From the sequence record NC_019710.1: a stretch of DNA of 40,710 nucleotides, one strand, 5' to 3'. This DNA comes from Enterobacteria phage HK140. Made by a program: the position numbers and the translations under genes. The notes under the pieces were generated by a model that saw only the letters and a program-made list of their open reading frames with translations, made no database searches and was not told where the DNA came from. This document shows, piece by piece, positions 12,774-22,551 of the stretch (within the stretch, counting starts at the first letter, position 1; each line of letters starts with the position of its first letter).

Positions 12774-13115
12774 ATGAAAAAAACATTATTGACACTTTCT
12801 TTGATAATCATGGCTGGTTGTTCGAGTATGCAGGATCTCCGGAAGGAACCAGCGTCAAATACTTTTCAATCGAAGAAACAAATTGACGCAGTAGCTGAAT
12901 GCATACTCTCTGGCTGGCAAGAAGAAAGCCAAAAATATGGAAGCGTTTTTATTCAGCCTTATGACGGTGGTAAAACTGTATTTACACAATCTCAACTTGA
13001 GATGGTTGATTTAATATCGGACGGCGGAATTACCAAGATTGAATTCCGTCATCAAGGTGGGCTATTTGCTTATCGAATAAACAGCCGGATTAAAGTAATA
13101 GAACGCTGTATCTAA
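12774..13115 (+). CDS. Lipoprotein moron between K and I
   Basis: 113 aa starting MKKTLLTLSLIIMAGCSS (signal peptide plus lipobox Cys); RBS AGGGGATAGGG; its own terminator follows at 13125-13148. Confidence 0.6.
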   Translation: MKKTLLTLSLIIMAGCSSMQDLRKEPASNTFQSKKQIDAVAECILSGWQEESQKYGSVFIQPYDGGKTVFTQSQLEMVDLISDGGITKIEFRHQGGLFAYRINSRIKVIERCI

Positions 13116-13819: not shown

Positions 13820-16800
13820 ATGGCTACAGATAAAGTGTTAAAAGGCCGCAAGGGCGGCAGCTCAAGTTCCCGAACTCCTACCGAACAGCCTGATGATCTG
13901 CAATCTGTAGCGAAGGCAAAAATCCTCGTTGCGCTTGGGGAAGGTGAGTTTGCAGGGCAGCTCACCGGCAAAGATATCTACCTGGACGGAACAGCGCTGG
14001 AGAATGCTGACGGCTCCCAAAACTTCAGCGGGGTAACGTGGGAGTTTCGCGCGGGAACTCAGGCGCAAAAATATATTCAGGGTATTCCCGGTACCGAAAA
14101 CGAGATCAGCGTAGGAACTGAGGTATCAAGTGCCACAGCCTGGACGCGCACGTTTACCAATACGCAGCTTTCAGCAGTTCGCCTGCGTCTTAAATGGCCC
14201 TCGCTTTTCAAACAGGAAGACGACGGCGATCTGGTGGGTTACTCGGTCAATTATGCGATTGACCTACAGACGGACGGCGGCACATGGCAGACGGTACTCA
14301 ATACCAGCGTGACCGGTAAAACGACCTCAGGTTATGAGCGCAGCCACCGTATCGATTTACCGCAGGCTGGCAGCACCTGGACAATACGTCTGCGTAAGAT
14401 TACCTCTGACGCCAACAGCGCGAAGATCGGCGACACGATGATGCTGCAGAGCTTCACCGAGGTGATTGACGCCAAACTGCGCTACCCGAACACCGCGCTG
14501 CTCTACGTCGAATTCGACTCAAGCCAGTTCAACGGCTCTATTCCTCAAATTTCATGCGAACCGCGCGGCCGCGTTATCCGCGTTCCAGATACCTACGACC
14601 CTGAAACCCGCACTTATAGCGGTACATGGACCGGTGCGTTTAAGTGGGCATGGACGGATAACCCTGCGTGGATTTTTTACGACCTGGTTGTTTCTGACCG
14701 GTTCGGCCTTGGGCACCGTTTGACCGCTGCGAATATTGATAAATGGACGCTTTATCAGGTTGCTCAGTATTGTGATCAGATGGTACCAGACGGCAAAGGG
14801 GGCAATGGTACAGAACCACGTTATACCTGCAACGTGTACATTCAGGACCGGAACGACGCCTACACAGTCCTGCGTGATTTTGCCGCTATCTTCCGTGGCA
14901 TGACCTACTGGGGCGGGGATCAGATTGTGGCCCTGGCTGACATGCCGCGCGATGTTGATTACAGCTATACGCGCGCTAACGTTGTTGGCGGTCGCTTCAC
15001 CTATTCGAGCAGCACCACGAAAAGCCGCTACACCACAGCGCTGGTTTCATGGTCAGACCCGGGTAACGCTTATGCCGACGCGATGGAGCCGGTATTTGAG
15101 CAGGCGCTGGTGGCGCGGTACGGCTTCAATCAGCTGGAAATGACAGCCATCGGCTGCACCAGGCAGTCAGAGGCGAACCGAAAGGGGCGCTGGGGTATTC
15201 TCACCAATAACAAGGATCGCGTTGTTTCGTTTGATGTCGGGCTGGACGGAAACATTCCGCAGCCGGGCTACATCATCGCCGTGGCAGACGAGCTGCTTTC
15301 CGGAAAGGTTATGGGCGGCCGCATCAGCGCCGTTAACGGTCGCGTTATCAAACTTGACCGCGTAGCTGATGCAGCACCAGGTGATCGCCTTATTCTCAAC
15401 CTTCCCTCCGGAGCGTCGCAGAGCAGGACCATTCAGGCCGTGAACGGGGAATCAGTCACAGTCACCACGGCATACAGTGAGACGCCACAGGCCGAAGCTG
15501 TTTGGGTGGTTGAATCTGACGAGCTTTACGCGCAGCAGTATCGTGTTGTCAGCGTTTCCGATAACAATGATGGCACTTTCTCGATTACCGGCGCATGGCA
15601 CGACCCGGATAAATATGCCTGTATCGATACCGGAGCCATCATTGACCAACGGCCGGTGAGCGTGATCCCGCCGGGCAACCAGTCGCCGCCTGCGAATATC
15701 GTGATCAGCTCGTTTTCCGTGGTTCAGCAAAATATCAGCGTCGAAACAATGCGCGTGAGCTGGGACCAGGCGCAGAACGCTATCGCCTATGAAGCGCAAT
15801 GGCGCCGCAACGACGGGAACTGGGTTAACGTGCCGCGCACCTCCACCACGTCATTCGACGTCCCGGGGATTTATGCCGGGCGCTACCTGGTGCGGGTGCG
15901 CGCAATCAATGCCGCAGAAATTTCATCCGGATGGGGCTATTCAGAAGAGAAAACGCTGACGGGTAAAGTGGGCAATCCACCGAAGCCGGTTGGCTTTATC
16001 GCCTCTGAAAACGTGGTGTTCGGTATCGAGCTGAACTGGGGATTCCCGGCGAATACCGACGACACGCTGAAGACGGAAATTCAGTACAGCCTGACCGGGA
16101 GCGAAGATGATGCCATTCTTCTGAGCGATGTTCCCTATCCGCAGCGCAAGTATCAGCAGATGGGCCTGAAGGCGGGGCAAATTTTCTGGTACCGGGCGCA
16201 GCTGGTGGACAGGACAGGCAATGAGTCGGGTTATACCGACTGGGTACGTGGACAGGCCAGTATCGATGTGTCGGATATCACCGATGTTATCCTGGAGGAC
16301 ATTAAAGAATCGGACACGTTCAAGGAACTGATCGAAAGCGCAGTAGACAGCAACGAAAAAATTGCTGGTATGGCTGACGATATCAGACAGAACGCTGACG
16401 ATCTGGAGCAACAGGCGCTGGCCATCAAGGAAAACGCCGATGGGCTCGCCCAGGCCGAGGTGAAGATTGACGAAATCTCTGTCTCGATGGATGGCATGAC
16501 GGGAGGCGTTAAAAACTCCTCTATCGCGGTTATTCAGAACAGCCTCGCGCAGGTCACCAGCCGTCGATCCCAGACAGCCACCAACGCCGGGAACAGCGCC
16601 AGCATCGACCGTATCGATACCACCATTGCAGATACCAGCCAGGCGGTTGCCCGTGCGCTGGTTACGCTTGATGCTTCTGCCGGTGGTAATGTCTCAAACG
16701 CGACCGATCTCACCGAAACCCTTGCTGATTTCACGCAGGCCTCGGCCACGAAAATCAACTCCCTGACGGTTACGGTAAACGGCCAGACAGCGGCTATTAA

Positions 16801-17275
16801 CCAGACCGCGCAGGCGGTGGCTGATGTGAACGGTAACCTCAGCGCGATGTACAACATCAAGGTTGGTGTCTCCAGCAACGGGCAGTATTACGCCGCGGGG
16901 ATGGGTATCGGCGTGGAGAATACGCCATCCGGCATGCAGTCACAGGTAATCTTCCTGGCAGACCGTTTCGCCGTGACTACTATGGTCGGCGGGACTGTAA
17001 CACTGCCGTTCGTTATCCAGAATGGCCAGGCCATTATCAGGGATACAGTCATTGGCGACGGGACCATAAGCAATGCAAAAATTGGCAATTACATCCAGTC
17101 GAACAATTATGTTGCCGGCTCTGTTGGCTGGAAACTGGATAAGTCCGGGACGTTTGAGAACTACGGTTCGACAGCTGGGGAGGGAGCCATGAAGCAGACC
17201 AACCAGACAATCAGCGTCAAGGATGACAACAACGTTCTGAGAGTGCAGTTTGGCCGATTAACGGGGGTGTTCTGA
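13820..17275 (+). CDS. J: Host specificity protein J (central tail fibre)
   Basis: 1151 aa, the largest ORF, following I. Confidence 0.9.
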   Translation: MATDKVLKGRKGGSSSSRTPTEQPDDLQSVAKAKILVALGEGEFAGQLTGKDIYLDGTALENADGSQNFSGVTWEFRAGTQAQKYIQGIPGTENEISVGTEVSSATAWTRTFTNTQLSAVRLRLKWPSLFKQEDDGDLVGYSVNYAIDLQTDGGTWQTVLNTSVTGKTTSGYERSHRIDLPQAGSTWTIRLRKITSDANSAKIGDTMMLQSFTEVIDAKLRYPNTALLYVEFDSSQFNGSIPQISCEPRGRVIRVPDTYDPETRTYSGTWTGAFKWAWTDNPAWIFYDLVVSDRFGLGHRLTAANIDKWTLYQVAQYCDQMVPDGKGGNGTEPRYTCNVYIQDRNDAYTVLRDFAAIFRGMTYWGGDQIVALADMPRDVDYSYTRANVVGGRFTYSSSTTKSRYTTALVSWSDPGNAYADAMEPVFEQALVARYGFNQLEMTAIGCTRQSEANRKGRWGILTNNKDRVVSFDVGLDGNIPQPGYIIAVADELLSGKVMGGRISAVNGRVIKLDRVADAAPGDRLILNLPSGASQSRTIQAVNGESVTVTTAYSETPQAEAVWVVESDELYAQQYRVVSVSDNNDGTFSITGAWHDPDKYACIDTGAIIDQRPVSVIPPGNQSPPANIVISSFSVVQQNISVETMRVSWDQAQNAIAYEAQWRRNDGNWVNVPRTSTTSFDVPGIYAGRYLVRVRAINAAEISSGWGYSEEKTLTGKVGNPPKPVGFIASENVVFGIELNWGFPANTDDTLKTEIQYSLTGSEDDAILLSDVPYPQRKYQQMGLKAGQIFWYRAQLVDRTGNESGYTDWVRGQASIDVSDITDVILEDIKESDTFKELIESAVDSNEKIAGMADDIRQNADDLEQQALAIKENADGLAQAEVKIDEISVSMDGMTGGVKNSSIAVIQNSLAQVTSRRSQTATNAGNSASIDRIDTTIADTSQAVARALVTLDASAGGNVSNATDLTETLADFTQASATKINSLTVTVNGQTAAINQTAQAVADVNGNLSAMYNIKVGVSSNGQYYAAGMGIGVENTPSGMQSQVIFLADRFAVTTMVGGTVTLPFVIQNGQAIIRDTVIGDGTISNAKIGNYIQSNNYVAGSVGWKLDKSGTFENYGSTAGEGAMKQTNQTISVKDDNNVLRVQFGRLTGVF

Positions 17276-17276
17276 T

Positions 17277-17579
17277 ATGGCTTATGGAATACAGACCTGG
17301 GATGCTTCAGGAAAACCCAACAACTATGGCATCAAACCCGTTTCCGTCGTTGGACGTATACAACTTGCCGCCGGACAAAACTCCGGCAGCTGGTCTTTCA
17401 CTGTACCCTCAGGAATGAAGGTCGGTTTTGCGCTCTCACTTGATGAAGGAGGTAACAGCGTAGGGAGGAGCATTGTCGCGTCAGGGAACACAATAACCGT
17501 AACCGCAGCCTCTTCTGTGGGCCTGGGTAATTACCCGGCCTCTAAATGTGAGGTGGTCGTTTTCATGGAGAAAGCATAA
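17277..17579 (+). CDS. Hypothetical tail-associated protein with WDASGK motif
   Basis: 100 aa; start 2 nt after the J stop; shares the motif WDASGK with the next ORF. Confidence 0.4.
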   Translation: MAYGIQTWDASGKPNNYGIKPVSVVGRIQLAAGQNSGSWSFTVPSGMKVGFALSLDEGGNSVGRSIVASGNTITVTAASSVGLGNYPASKCEVVVFMEKA

Positions 17580-18253
17580 TGGCCGAATTTGGCGCGATGA
17601 TATTAATGGATAACGGGAATCCCTTTGTAACGCCACAATCAACGCCTTTCTGTCTTTACGGGAAGTATACCTTCAATTCATCCGCGAATGGCAGTTCTCA
17701 GCAGGTTGCTCAAAATATCGCTTTAAACGCTGATTACCCAGTGATGGTTTTTATCAAGACCACCAATACAGCACAGCCCACTCCGGTTATGTCTTACAGG
17801 AACGGCGGTAATGTGTATGTTGCTGGTGTTAATCCCTACAACCAAAGTTTCACTTTAACGTCGTACGTTTTTGCCATATTCCCGCAGATATTACCGAAAT
17901 GGGGTTTGGCAATATGGGATGCGAGCGGAAAGCTTGTGTTAACTAATGAGTCCCGTGTGCTATCAGACCTGCAGACGGTTGGCACGCCTGGTGCAAACGG
18001 CGGGATAAATATTGACCAGACGCTGAGCGGGTCATGGGCCGTTGCACCTGCTCAGTTGGGTCAGACCATCATTGTGAATAATTCAACCCAGCCTCCGACT
18101 ATCTACACGATAAATGCTTATTCTTCATGCAGGTTTGACGGGGCCAATACGAGGATAAACGCAGGGGGGACCTCCACTGGGGCAGGTTCACCTGGAGGGG
18201 GAACGAATACTGGCATTTCATTAACCGCCATAAATACAGCGGCCTATGATTGA
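17579..18253 (+). CDS. Hypothetical tail-associated protein with WDASGK motif
   Basis: 224 aa; start overlaps the upstream stop; Gly-rich C-terminus. Confidence 0.4.
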   Translation: MAEFGAMILMDNGNPFVTPQSTPFCLYGKYTFNSSANGSSQQVAQNIALNADYPVMVFIKTTNTAQPTPVMSYRNGGNVYVAGVNPYNQSFTLTSYVFAIFPQILPKWGLAIWDASGKLVLTNESRVLSDLQTVGTPGANGGINIDQTLSGSWAVAPAQLGQTIIVNNSTQPPTIYTINAYSSCRFDGANTRINAGGTSTGAGSPGGGTNTGISLTAINTAAYD

Positions 18254-18364
18254 TTGATCGTTTTTAGCGATCAATAACATAATATTGATCTATCCAATCA
18301 ATTATACCCACCAGAATTGTATTGGTATCGTCTAAGATACTGAATTCCTCTGGATACTATCAAA

Positions 18365-18598
18365 ATGAGAAAACTGATTATCTGCATGGCAGGCGCTGTC
18401 ATGCTTACAGGATGCGCTGGCGTAATTGAGAAACAGGAACCAGTTTGCAGCGGCACTGCAATCGTTGGCGGTCAGGAAACTACGGTTCAGATTTACGGTG
18501 TGCGTAAACAAAACAACCAGACGCAGTACCGGGCTGGATATCCTTTCAGCTGGCGCTGGGTAAGTGCGAATACATTTACCGAAACAACCTGCAAATAA
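18365..18598 (+). CDS. Small lipoprotein, candidate Cor-like superinfection exclusion protein
   Basis: 77 aa starting MRKLIICMAGAVMLTGC (lipobox); sits downstream of the J region where cor is found in phi80/N15-type phages; terminator follows. Confidence 0.5.
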   Translation: MRKLIICMAGAVMLTGCAGVIEKQEPVCSGTAIVGGQETTVQIYGVRKQNNQTQYRAGYPFSWRWVSANTFTETTCK

Positions 18599-18619
18599 CC
18601 CACTACGCTTAAACATAAA

Positions 18620-18643
18620 CCTCGCTCCGGCGGGGTTTTTTTA
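18620..18643 (+). terminator. Intrinsic terminator
   Basis: Hairpin CCTCGC-tccg-GCGGGG (one G-U pair) followed by TTTTTTT. Confidence 0.7.
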
Positions 18644-18658
18644 TTGCCTGGAGAAAAT

Positions 18659-20032
18659 ATGCTTTATAACACCGGCACCATCGCCATTAATGGAAATACC
18701 GCCACCGGGAAGGGTACAAACTGGACGGCACCGGCCAGCCAGGTTCGCGCTGGCCAGACAATTATCGTGATGTCTAACCCGGTGCAACTGTTCCAGATTT
18801 CATCCGTGAACAGCGCCACGTCAATGACGGTTACGCCTGCCGCTTCCCCGGCGCTGAGCGGCCAGAAATACGCCATTCTGGTGTCAGACATTATCTCCGT
18901 GGACGGACTGGCCCAGGCAATGTCGCAGCTCATCAAAGAGTATGACGAGAACATTGGCGCGTGGGAGACGTTCGCCACTACCTCAGCAAACCAGACCATC
19001 ACCGTTACCATCAACGGGACCACCGTAACCATCCCTGGCATCGGTAAACTGGCACAGAAAGGGAGCAACGGTGCGGTTACTGTCGCAGACGGCGGAACCG
19101 GGGCAACAACGGCAGAAGGGAGTCGCACAAACCTCGGTTTAGGAGACAGCGCCACAAGGAACGTCGGAACGGCTGCCGGAACTGTGGCGGCCGGGGATGA
19201 TTCGCGATTCGAAAAGATTGCCAAATTAGGAAGTGCAGCAACAAAAGATACTGGTGAGGGTGAAGGAAATGTGCTGATAACGGGGTCATTTGGTGTGGGT
19301 TCTAAAATTTTACCAGTCATCAGCGATATTTGGGATAAAAGCCAAGGCTCGCGCTTCTGCAACGTTACCCCTGCGACATTGGGAGGTCCTGGTATTTACG
19401 GCTCAGGCATCCGGCTGTCTGATCGAAACATCGGAAGTGGAGCAACCTATGCCGCACAGCAATCCTTTTTTGCTCTGATTTTTAGCGGCAAAGTCATTCA
19501 ATTTATGGGGATGACTGATGGCGTCGACACCGGGTGGATGAAGATTTACCACACAGGGAACACGACCAGGGCATCTGATGGCACGCTGAAGGCCGCCTCC
19601 CCGATTGTACGGTTGTTTGGGAATGGCAAATGCCAGCTTAACGACGAATCAGAGGGGTGCACTGTAACCCGCTTGGCTACGGGAAAATATCTGGTTGAAG
19701 GGTGTGAGGGGCTTAACTCTGATGCCGCCTGGGGCGGTATTGATGGCGGTTTCGACATCCCAACCGACCGCAACAAACAACCGCTCATCTGGCTGGACTA
19801 CGAAGTAAACGCTGATGGTTCTGTGCTGATTCAAACCTACCACCGCACACATCCTTCGGCACCTGCTTATGCCAGAAATGAACGTGACGGGATCAATGAC
19901 GGAGAGCCTATTGATATCCCGTCAGATCAGTTCGTCAGCGTTCGAGTAGAAATGCCTGCTAACAGCATCTGGAATCAGAAACAGAAAGCAATAGAAGAAG
20001 CTGCGAAAAGCGCGTCCGAAGAGGTTCAATAA
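18659..20032 (+). CDS. Side tail fibre protein
   Basis: 458 aa from the ATG at 18659 (RBS GGAG); Gly/Thr/Ala-rich with motif DGGTGATTAEGSRTNLGLGDSATRNVG. Confidence 0.75.
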   Translation: MLYNTGTIAINGNTATGKGTNWTAPASQVRAGQTIIVMSNPVQLFQISSVNSATSMTVTPAASPALSGQKYAILVSDIISVDGLAQAMSQLIKEYDENIGAWETFATTSANQTITVTINGTTVTIPGIGKLAQKGSNGAVTVADGGTGATTAEGSRTNLGLGDSATRNVGTAAGTVAAGDDSRFEKIAKLGSAATKDTGEGEGNVLITGSFGVGSKILPVISDIWDKSQGSRFCNVTPATLGGPGIYGSGIRLSDRNIGSGATYAAQQSFFALIFSGKVIQFMGMTDGVDTGWMKIYHTGNTTRASDGTLKAASPIVRLFGNGKCQLNDESEGCTVTRLATGKYLVEGCEGLNSDAAWGGIDGGFDIPTDRNKQPLIWLDYEVNADGSVLIQTYHRTHPSAPAYARNERDGINDGEPIDIPSDQFVSVRVEMPANSIWNQKQKAIEEAAKSASEEVQ

Positions 20033-20078: not shown

Positions 20079-20345
20079 TCACACTCCATTCTGGAGAACG
20101 GTCGGGAACTCAGAAACCAGCCACATATCGGACTCTTCAAACATTTCCTCCAGCATGCGGTTCAGTTTTTCCCGATCACTTTTGCTGGCATCGCTATTTA
20201 AACCGTTCGCCTGCATTGGCTTCACCTTCACTTCGGCATCGGGGAAAATCTGGTGCACCCGCTTCTTCAACTCGGCCAGTATGATCTCTCTGGCCCCTTT
20301 GAGCCCCTCAACATTACGCTTGTCATAAACTAGTTCAACGAACAT
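20079..20345 (-). CDS. dinI: DinI-like damage-inducible protein
   Basis: Aligns with E. coli DinI along its length (IFPDAEVKV, DREKLNRMLEEMFEESDMWLVSE); alternative ATG at 20351. Confidence 0.8.
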   Translation of the reverse strand: MFVELVYDKRNVEGLKGAREIILAELKKRVHQIFPDAEVKVKPMQANGLNSDASKSDREKLNRMLEEMFEESDMWLVSEFPTVLQNGV

Positions 20346-20387
20346 AACCATCCCTCTCGCTTACTTGATCTCTGCAAATAAAAATAC

Positions 20388-20407
20388 TACTGTATTCATA
20401 TACAGTC
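20388..20407. promoter_or_regulatory. LexA (SOS) box TACTGTATTCATATACAGTC
   Basis: Perfect CTGT-N8-ACAG in the divergent intergenic region between dinI (-) and the impC-like/umuD' operon (+). Confidence 0.8.
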
Positions 20408-20430
20408 AATGTGTCATGAGGGCTATACTT

Positions 20431-20670
20431 ATGCCTCGTAAATCAGATATTCATGCAGCTTTTTTAGCCTCTATAGAACAGAATCAAAAGGGTTACCTTT
20501 GTCTCAATACAAATAAATTCATCAATAAGTTGCGCGAGAAGAGCTGGCATTTCAGCCAGGCGGATGCAAATACATGGATCGAGCGATACCAGCCGGACTT
20601 CGCCGATAAGACGACAAACGGCAGCCAGAACCGGTACTGGATCCTGCGTAACATGGGGAGGGTTTTCTAA
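20431..20670 (+). CDS. Small protein upstream of umuD', positionally ImpC-like
   Basis: 79 aa from the ATG at 20431 (RBS GAGGG); stop overlaps the umuD' start (TAATG). Confidence 0.4.
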   Translation: MPRKSDIHAAFLASIEQNQKGYLCLNTNKFINKLREKSWHFSQADANTWIERYQPDFADKTTNGSQNRYWILRNMGRVF

Positions 20671-21059
20671 TGGGCTTTCCTTCGCCGGCTACGGATTACG
20701 TTGAACAGCGTATATCGCTTGACGAGCGCATCATCACCAGGCCAGCGGCTACGTACTTTATGCGGGCCGGTGCAACGCATTACCGAGAAGGTATCCTCAA
20801 TGGTGCTTTGCTGGTTGTCGACGCGTCAATGTCTCCATGTGATGGTTCATTGCTGGTTTGCACAGATAGCGGTGAGTTTAGGATTAAGCGGTATCGCACA
20901 CACCCGCGGCCACACCTGGAAAACCTTGAGAACGGTAAACGGGAGAGTTTGCTAGATAAGGATGAGGTATCCGACACTTCGCGTCCGGTATTTGGGGTGA
21001 TCACGTATATCATCAACGACGCGCGGTCTGGTGAGTTTGATGACTACCCGCTGAAGTGA
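20670..21059 (+). CDS. UmuD'-like protein (S24 family), natively lacking the N-terminal cleavage segment
   Basis: 129 aa starting MGFPSPATDYVEQRI, matching UmuD from Gly25 (GFPSPAADYVEQRI); the position of the UmuD Ser nucleophile aligns to Thr/His. Confidence 0.8.
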   Translation: MGFPSPATDYVEQRISLDERIITRPAATYFMRAGATHYREGILNGALLVVDASMSPCDGSLLVCTDSGEFRIKRYRTHPRPHLENLENGKRESLLDKDEVSDTSRPVFGVITYIINDARSGEFDDYPLK

Positions 21060-21065
21060 AAATAG

Positions 21066-21092
21066 TGTTGTGTACCAAATTGCGTACCAAAC
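21066..21092. repeat. attP arm-type repeats, P arm (2 copies of GTACCAAA)
   Basis: TGTGTACCAAA ttgc GTACCAAA seen directly. Confidence 0.5.
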
Positions 21093-21317
21093 TAAAATCA
21101 CAAATCATGAAACCCTTGTTCATGGCGGTTCTCAGGGGTATTGCGCGTAATCGTGAAAGAGGAAGGTAGGTTGTTTATCTGTGTCTGTCATTGTCTAGCA
21201 TTGTCCACTGTAGTTAATTAACTGCCTGTTATAACTCGAAAAACAACCATTTTTTCACCTGAGTATGTCTACGAACGTCAAATATAGTTGTTTACTGTGC
21301 GCTGTTGTCCATGTGAT

Positions 21318-21365
21318 ATTGTGTACCAGATGTGTACCAAACCATTATTTCTGAGCGTACCAAAT
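21318..21365. repeat. attP arm-type repeats, P' arm (3 copies of GTACCA(A/G)A)
   Basis: TGTGTACCAGA, TGTGTACCAAA and GCGTACCAAA directly upstream of int. Confidence 0.5.
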
Positions 21366-21372
21366 ATTATTT

Positions 21373-22551
21373 ATGGCTATAAGCGACACAAAACTGCGTA
21401 CTATTTATGGTAAACCATATTCGGGCCCACAAGAAGTGGCTGATGCCGATGGCCTCAGCGTACGAATTTCACCGAAGGGGGTCATTCAGTTCCAGTACCG
21501 TTATCGCTGGCATGGCAAGCCTAATCGACTTGGGCTTGGTCGATACCCATCCCTGTCTTTGAAGGATGCCAGACAGATCACTGCTGACTTGCGAAATCTC
21601 TATTTCTCAGGAACGGATCCACGCACCTATTTTGAAGAGAAGGTGGAGAACTCCATGACGGTCGCCCAGTGTCTCGACTACTGGTTCGACAACTACGTCT
21701 CTACAACTCTCAGAGAAAAGACCCAGGCACTTTACCGATCAACGGTTATGAAGCGCATGCATGACGCCTTTCCTAATCGTCCGGCATCTTCTATCACGGT
21801 TAAGCAATGGGTTGACCTGCTTACCGAAGAAGAAAGAGATAATCCACGCCGAGCAAGGCAGGTGCTAAGTCAACTAAGATCAGCAATAAGTTGGTGCATG
21901 CGGCGTCAGTTGATAGATAGTTGCGCAATTATGAGCATCCAACCAAGGGACTTCGGCTCCCGCGCTGAGGTAGGGGATCGGGTACTGTCGTATCACGAAC
22001 TGGCTAAGATTTGGCTTGCTATTGAAAGAAGCCGTGCGTCTACGTCAAATAAGCTACTTCATCAGATGCTTATGCTGTGGGGGGCGAGGCTCTCAGAGCT
22101 TAGGCTGGCAAAAAAGACAGAATTTGACCTGCTGGAAAACGTATGGACCGTACCGAAAGAGCATAGCAAGATGGGTAATGTTATCCGCCGTCCAATCTTC
22201 GAACAAATTAAGCCTTTCCTCGAAAAGGCCATGACAACGTACAATGATGTTCTTTTCCCTGGAGAAGACATAAACAAACCGATCAGCATCGCTGCAGCCA
22301 ACCGATTCGTAAATAGAATAAGGGGAGGGATGGATCTAGGTTACTGGCGAACACACGATTTCAGAAGAACGCTTGTTACACGTCTGTCCGAGATGAATGT
22401 CGAGCCTCATGTTACTGAGCGAATGCTCGGTCATGAACTTGGCGGGATAATGTCCGTGTACAATAAACACGACTGGATAGAGGCTCAGCGCAAAGCGTAT
22501 GAGCTTCACGCTGATAAATTGTTCTGGCACATCAGGAGCATTTCTGATTAA
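21373..22551 (+). CDS. int: Tyrosine integrase (P4-like, with N-terminal arm-binding domain)
   Basis: 392 aa; C-terminal catalytic region with HDFRRT and a terminal Tyr-containing segment (SVYNKHD). Confidence 0.9.
   Translation: MAISDTKLRTIYGKPYSGPQEVADADGLSVRISPKGVIQFQYRYRWHGKPNRLGLGRYPSLSLKDARQITADLRNLYFSGTDPRTYFEEKVENSMTVAQCLDYWFDNYVSTTLREKTQALYRSTVMKRMHDAFPNRPASSITVKQWVDLLTEEERDNPRRARQVLSQLRSAISWCMRRQLIDSCAIMSIQPRDFGSRAEVGDRVLSYHELAKIWLAIERSRASTSNKLLHQMLMLWGARLSELRLAKKTEFDLLENVWTVPKEHSKMGNVIRRPIFEQIKPFLEKAMTTYNDVLFPGEDINKPISIAAANRFVNRIRGGMDLGYWRTHDFRRTLVTRLSEMNVEPHVTERMLGHELGGIMSVYNKHDWIEAQRKAYELHADKLFWHIRSISD

Follow-up and report, generated by a model that had tools for sequence, protein, structure and literature searches.

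A phi80-type cor gene and its predicted part in FhuA-directed exclusion in Enterobacteria phage HK140

The cor locus and its surroundings

The DNA analysed here (the window) is the whole 40,710-nucleotide stretch of Enterobacteria phage HK140 in sequence record NC_019710.1. Upstream of its side tail fibre gene, stf, lies a short open reading frame on the + strand, which begins with ATG at 18365, ends with TAA at 18596-18598, and encodes a 77-aa protein starting MRKLIICMAGAVMLTGCAGV (complete product MRKLIICMAGAVMLTGCAGVIEKQEPVCSGTAIVGGQETTVQIYGVRKQNNQTQYRAGYPFSWRWVSANTFTETTCK). The N-terminus, MRK-LIICMAGAVM-LTGC, combines a positively charged n-region (MRK) with a hydrophobic core and a lipobox that ends in Cys17 and was recognised by regular-expression match. 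The gene order is J, gp22-like, gp23-like, cor, terminator and stf, and cor occupies the same slot in phi80, mEp237, HK022 and N15. A preliminary description of this DNA, drawn up from the letters alone, had proposed a 77-aa lipoprotein gene with its own terminator, placed between the J-region genes and the side tail fibre; the reading frame is exactly as quoted there and carries the lipobox LTGC, the gene order bears out the slot, and both a terminator scan and RNA folding confirm the terminator. Coordinates are collected in Table 1.

Table 1. Features of the HK140 cor region and of the separate K-I lipoprotein gene (positions in the window)
Feature	Coordinates	Strand	Basis or detail
K-I putative lipoprotein, 113 aa, between K-like and I-like tail genes	12774..13115	+	PHROG 914
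J, central tail fibre / host specificity protein; C-terminal third phi80/mEp237-type	13820..17275	+	blastp
gp22-like gene, 100 aa, first cassette partner of cor	17277..17579	+	PHROG 557, E 3e-36
gp23-like gene, 224 aa, second cassette partner of cor	17579..18253	+	PHROG 425, E 5e-80
Two overlapping perfect 8-bp inverted repeats, ATTGATCG/CGATCAAT and GATCAATA/TATTGATC	18253..18290	.	repeat search
Putative cor promoter	18301..18339	+	-35 18301-18306 ATTATA; extended -10 18323-18331 TGGTATCGT; start site 18339; from FN582354 features
cor coding sequence, 77-aa prolipoprotein	18365..18598, stop codon included	+	ORF list; NF047972; PHROG 1119; phi80/mEp237/mEp213 protein identity; HK022 third-position bias
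Cor lipoprotein signal peptide, residues 1-16	18365..18412	+	lipobox LTGC at residues 14-17, regular-expression match
Mature Cor, 61 aa	18413..18595	+	acylated Cys17 first, Ala at +2, conserved Cys28 and Cys76
Rho-independent terminator of cor	18617..18645	+	terminator scan; RNA fold; annotated at homologous phi80 and mEp237 position
Side tail fibre gene, directly downstream of the cor terminator	18659..20032	+	PHROG 1591, E 5e-175; Pfam PF25670 (Phage_tail_C_2), E 5e-59

The pattern of divergence from HK022 is that of a translated gene. The two cor sequences are 78.6% identical at the nucleotide level, with 33 of the 50 differences falling at third codon positions, and the differing codons divide into 24 synonymous and 16 non-synonymous changes. 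An antisense reading frame of 94 aa (18332-18616) overlaps the gene and was weighed as an alternative, but stop codons break it up in HK022, and the substitutions fit the + frame. Together, the third-position bias and the broken antisense frame argue that the + frame is the one under selection.

Both partner genes immediately upstream are close to their counterparts in other phages: the gp22-like protein is 95% identical to phi80 gp22 and 99% identical to mEp237 gp21, and the gp23-like protein is 93% identical to phi80 gp23 and 99.6% identical to mEp237 gp22. Over its full length (blastp), J is 88.5% identical to the J protein of HK022, 92% to that of mEp237 and 62% to that of phi80; against phi80, identity is 76-88% over residues 801-1151, compared with 46-61% over the first 800. 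The start of stf corresponds to that of phi80 stf in an ungapped alignment of the two phages (alignment A1).

Downstream of cor, a G+C-rich nine-pair hairpin (18617-18638), set 18 bases beyond the stop codon, is followed by a T-tract that extends to about 18645. The predicted RNA fold has an energy of -15.7 kcal/mol (z = -3.5 relative to dinucleotide shuffles), and the element is nucleotide-identical to the position annotated as a terminator in phi80 and mEp237. Upstream, promoter coordinates were transferred from the phi80 record FN582354 via alignment A1, and it is from this correspondence only that we infer a cor promoter, the site being a weak match to consensus. Its putative -10 differs from that of phi80 by one base (TATCGT vs TATTGT), and a consensus promoter scan did not list the site, returning 18254-18283 instead. 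Starting at the gp23-like stop codon, the two inverted repeats lie ahead of the putative promoter; they are largely kept in phi80, mEp237 and HK022. These repeats were also considered as a Fur box that would tie cor to iron regulation in the manner of fhuA, a reading we rejected because more than 200 sites in the window score as well as the best match, 11/19, which is thus at chance level.

Identity of the gene and its relatives

Family models identify the protein with scores far beyond chance. It matches the NCBIfam equivalog NF047972 (lamb_exclu_cor, 'phage exclusion lipoprotein Cor'), scoring 140.9 bits where the curated cut-off is 31 (E 9e-42), with residues 1-76 aligned to model positions 1-76 of 78, and PHROG 1119, 'Cor superinfection exclusion protein', at E 7e-37. 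Pfam holds no Cor family, and its models returned sub-threshold noise alone for this protein (DUF4223, MiAMP1). A tblastn search of 50,697 phage records gave matches in 240 of them. Identity was 100% to the products of phi80 (FN582354 and NC_021190) and mEp213, as it was to that of mEp237 by blastp; it fell to 79% for the Cor proteins of HK022, mEp234, mEp235 and mEpX1, to 63% for N15 Cor, and to 33-44% for those of SSU5 and of T1-like and Dhillonvirus phages.

The residues that characterise the family are likewise present. In an alignment of 44 Cor sequences (alignment A2), C12 of the mature protein (precursor residue 28) is nearly invariant and C60 (precursor residue 76) is invariant, as are Q36, T37, G42, P44 and F45, all of which HK140 Cor retains; the conserved core, made up of the cysteine pair in the mature protein and a QTQYRAGYPF-W-W motif, is therefore present in HK140. 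Among bacterial sequences, 45 of the 5,426 complete E. coli genomes searched carry the 407-bp cor locus, 40 of them at an identity of at least 99%; for the 15 records listed, the PGAP name is cor in 14 and hypothetical in the other. A search of 5.8 billion proteins gave 113 clusters drawn from Escherichia, Enterobacter, Salmonella, Klebsiella, Cronobacter, Rahnella and their relatives, in which every source name that identifies a function is either cor or phage exclusion lipoprotein Cor.

We conclude that 18365-18598 is almost certainly cor, the gene by which lambdoid phages of the phi80 type bring about lysogenic conversion (superinfection exclusion). The preliminary description had suggested, from position and N-terminus, a Cor-like lipoprotein that blocks FhuA, to be checked by alignment with the Cor family; the full-length family match, the complete identity to phi80 Cor, PHROG 1119 and the genomic slot now make it cor itself. 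Its designation of the gene as a moron also agrees with the phi80 and HK022 records. In FN582354, the identical phi80 gene is annotated as 'conversion resistant protein Cor precursor', a moron gene whose product blocks the TonB-dependent FhuA receptor of the outer membrane and is processed by signal peptidase II, with signal peptide (sig_peptide), acylated cysteine, promoter and terminator all marked as features. The finding is thus correct but already known, as the product is identical to the founding phi80 member and lies in its usual genomic place. As the lysogenic conversion gene of phi80 and N15, cor was already known in the 1980s-90s, the NCBI pipeline names it automatically, and the protein is the phi80 protein, so that its discovery value is small.

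The relatives of HK140 Cor differ in how much else they have in common with it. The 77-aa protein is identical in phi80 (UniProt P17651; CBH95076.1; NC_021190 gp24), mEp237 and mEp213, and in phi80 the likeness extends to the coding DNA, the terminator, the start of stf and the order J, gp22, gp23, cor, stf; the rest of the HK140 genome, however, resembles HK022 and mEpX2 rather than phi80. The Cor proteins of HK022 (gp27) and N15 (gene 24) have the same family, length, lipobox, cysteine pair and slot as HK140 Cor, of which they are sequence variants. In T1-like phages and Dhillonvirus (Drexlerviridae; T1, SSL-2009a, bob, KanT1), Cor belongs to the same PHROG and family at 35-43% identity, often lies in the same three-gene cassette and is in every case linked to the use of FhuA; these phages are lytic, though, and their Cor acts during infection and not as a lysogenic conversion factor.

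A second part of the preliminary description, that the putative lipoprotein encoded between the K-like and I-like tail genes (MKKTLLTLSLIIMAGCSS) might be a further exclusion gene, is speculative: the protein has no established connection with exclusion and matches PHROG 914 (unknown function) as its sole PHROG, together with hypothetical proteins. Only mEpX2, which encodes the identical protein (hypothetical), and, distantly, two Klebsiella phages share it; the latter, ST846-OXA48phi9.1 (hypothetical) and Kpn_R1 (a record without annotation), do so at 38% identity. By blastp it has no homology to the 'gp20 moron' that HK022 carries in the same slot. A weak NCBIfam match (E 0.08) to a family of T6SS immunity lipoproteins falls short of significance, and this reading was set aside. 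That the K-I product is a second receptor-blocking lipoprotein and, likewise, that the repeats at 18253-18290 form an operator regulating cor are proposals which, taken jointly, we regard as quite improbable.

FhuA, exclusion and the competing accounts of Cor action

The phages phi80, HK022, N15 and T1 are all users of FhuA. In HK140, the phi80/mEp237-type C-terminus of J and the gp22-like and gp23-like genes make use of FhuA by the phage probable, and together with cor they indicate FhuA as its own receptor; on these sequence grounds, HK140 itself most probably uses FhuA. According to a recent paper, siphophages that are otherwise unrelated carry the three-gene cassette (gp22-like, gp23-like, cor) along with the use of FhuA (PMC13164509). 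A publication on the Enterobacter phage FRphi refers to FhuA and does not name Cor as a whole word. In HK140, cor would protect the lysogen, or the infected cell, against phages of its own kind as well as against T1, T5 and phi80.

Such protection is in keeping with what has been reported for related genes. The cor gene of phi80 prevents T1 infection via the shared FhuA receptor (PMC2885432), a block of FhuA-dependent phages and of FhuA transport has been reported in the literature for the Cor proteins of phi80, mEp167 and N15, and passages in later work describe Cor proteins as functionally inactivating FhuA (Uc-Mass 2004, as cited in bioRxiv 10.64898/2026.03.26.714494; also PMC11436027). By analogy, the HK140 precursor would be exported and receive a diacylglyceryl group on Cys17; cleavage by signal peptidase II and N-acylation would follow. 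The resulting all-beta domain of 61 aa, probably closed by a Cys28-Cys76 disulfide, would then bind FhuA, a TonB-dependent transporter, on its periplasmic side and, like Llp of T5, lock it, such that the surface loops no longer accept phage receptor-binding proteins and transport is blocked. With FhuA locked in this way, lysogens or infected cells that express Cor would resist adsorption of T1, T5, phi80, N15, HK022, the mEp phages and HK140 itself, and would lose the FhuA functions exploited by ferrichrome, albomycin and colicin M. We predict that HK140 lysogens resist T1, T5, phi80 and other FhuA-dependent phages, and that their uptake of ferrichrome, albomycin and colicin M is impaired. An expected further benefit is that released progeny would not be wasted on the debris of lysed cells.

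The model for this proposal is Llp, the lytic conversion lipoprotein of T5 (PDB 8A60 chain B, 7QJF). In our comparison Cor and Llp share a three-dimensional fold, in agreement with two recent reports (bioRxiv 10.64898/2026.03.26.714494; PMC13164509), and an intramolecular disulfide is also present in T5 Llp (PMC9586334), which binds FhuA and is thought to act like Cor (PMC9586334). The link is structural only, and the fold is small and common. Neither phmmer nor hmmsearch with a profile of the 44 Cor sequences recovered Llp, or anything else of relevance, from the full set of PDB sequences at E up to 10, and Foldseek with Cor gave non-significant Tudor/SH3-like barrels alone. A confident AF3 model has been reported for a T1-like Cor with FhuA (PMC13164509). 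Given the shared fold and the disulfide in Llp, we consider that an Llp-like periplasmic mechanism is probable for Cor and the likeliest of those considered.

The main competing account accepts that Cor excludes, but holds that it needs, or acts through, other outer-membrane proteins (OmpA, OmpC, OmpF or others), for example by reorganising their neighbourhood around FhuA, so that no simple, direct lock of the Llp type would exist. The work of Arguijo-Hernandez et al. counts in its support, as does the statement in a 2026 preprint that the molecular mechanism of Cor is not yet elucidated (bioRxiv 10.64898/2026.03.26.714494). We think this account unlikely, although a simple one-to-one model of Cor with FhuA may be incomplete.

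The Lol sorting rule for residue +2 of lipoproteins is established, and we invoke it for the alanine that follows Cys17 in Cor. With this residue, an ordinary lipobox and no known surface-export signal, Cor hardly resembles a protein that would be displayed on the cell surface to mask the external, phage-binding loops of FhuA sterically. Such a location recalls an early in vitro study, mentioned in a passage of PMC9586334, which put the analogous Llp outside the cell, and initial AF3 runs did dock Cor on the outer side of FhuA (PMC13164509); the authors of those runs nevertheless deem outside docking unavailable in vivo, and the crystal structure of FhuA with Llp (8a60) has Llp on the periplasmic side (PMC9586334). 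Surface masking is thus very improbable, and the periplasmic, Llp-like action of Cor remains the preferred reading. That the gene is a silent passenger, intact yet unexpressed in the prophage and conferring no conversion phenotype, would suit the altered -10, the poor -35 and a weak Shine-Dalgarno sequence, but is extremely improbable given that the sequence upstream of cor matches mEp237, a cor-carrying phage that has been isolated, at 100% identity and is conserved in HK022, that the coding sequence is under purifying selection, and that read-through from the late tail operon is possible.

A mosaic genome and exchange of the cor island

The DNA around cor differs in ancestry from most of the genome. 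Positions 18347-18691 (345 bp), which span cor, its terminator and the first stf codons, are base-for-base identical to phi80, and positions 17862-18710 (849 bp) are base-for-base identical to mEp237. In the 90 bp upstream of cor, about 20 positions differ from phi80 and all are identical to mEp237. The flanks of the island are 78-92% identical to phi80, and similarity drops to about 64% after position 19000, where what looks like a recombination joint lies inside stf. HK022 is the source of most of the HK140 virion genes (about 97% DNA identity), whereas the cor cassette is of the mEp237/phi80 type. A nucleotide-identical cor island within diverged neighbours is a clear case of modular exchange, among lambdoid phages, of a cassette that joins receptor specificity to exclusion.

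More broadly, the left arm of the genome is about 97% identical to HK022 and mEpX2 at the DNA level, and the right arm is pieced together from mEpX1-, mEpX2- and E212-like segments. The window, similar in size to HK022, looks like a single entire lambdoid genome of mosaic build; its alignments with HK022 and mEpX2 start at positions 45 to 94. This combination of segments may be undescribed, because neither half of the genome is covered to 80% by any record of the phage collection.

The J protein is itself a mosaic. Residues 1-800 are 96-100% identical to J of HK022; residues 901-1000 are 49% identical to HK022 and 82-83% identical to phi80 and mEp237; and the C-terminal end is 86-99% identical to HK022, phi80 and mEp237 alike. 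Next after stf come a DinI-like gene (20082-20351, - strand; PF06183), an unassigned 101-aa open reading frame (20365-20667), a short Peptidase_S24 (UmuD/LexA-like) open reading frame (20670-21056) and, downstream of the latter, an integrase gene on the + strand (21373-22548). At the region that matches 20082-22548, phi80 and mEp237 have instead a DinI/MsgA gene and a DNA invertase.
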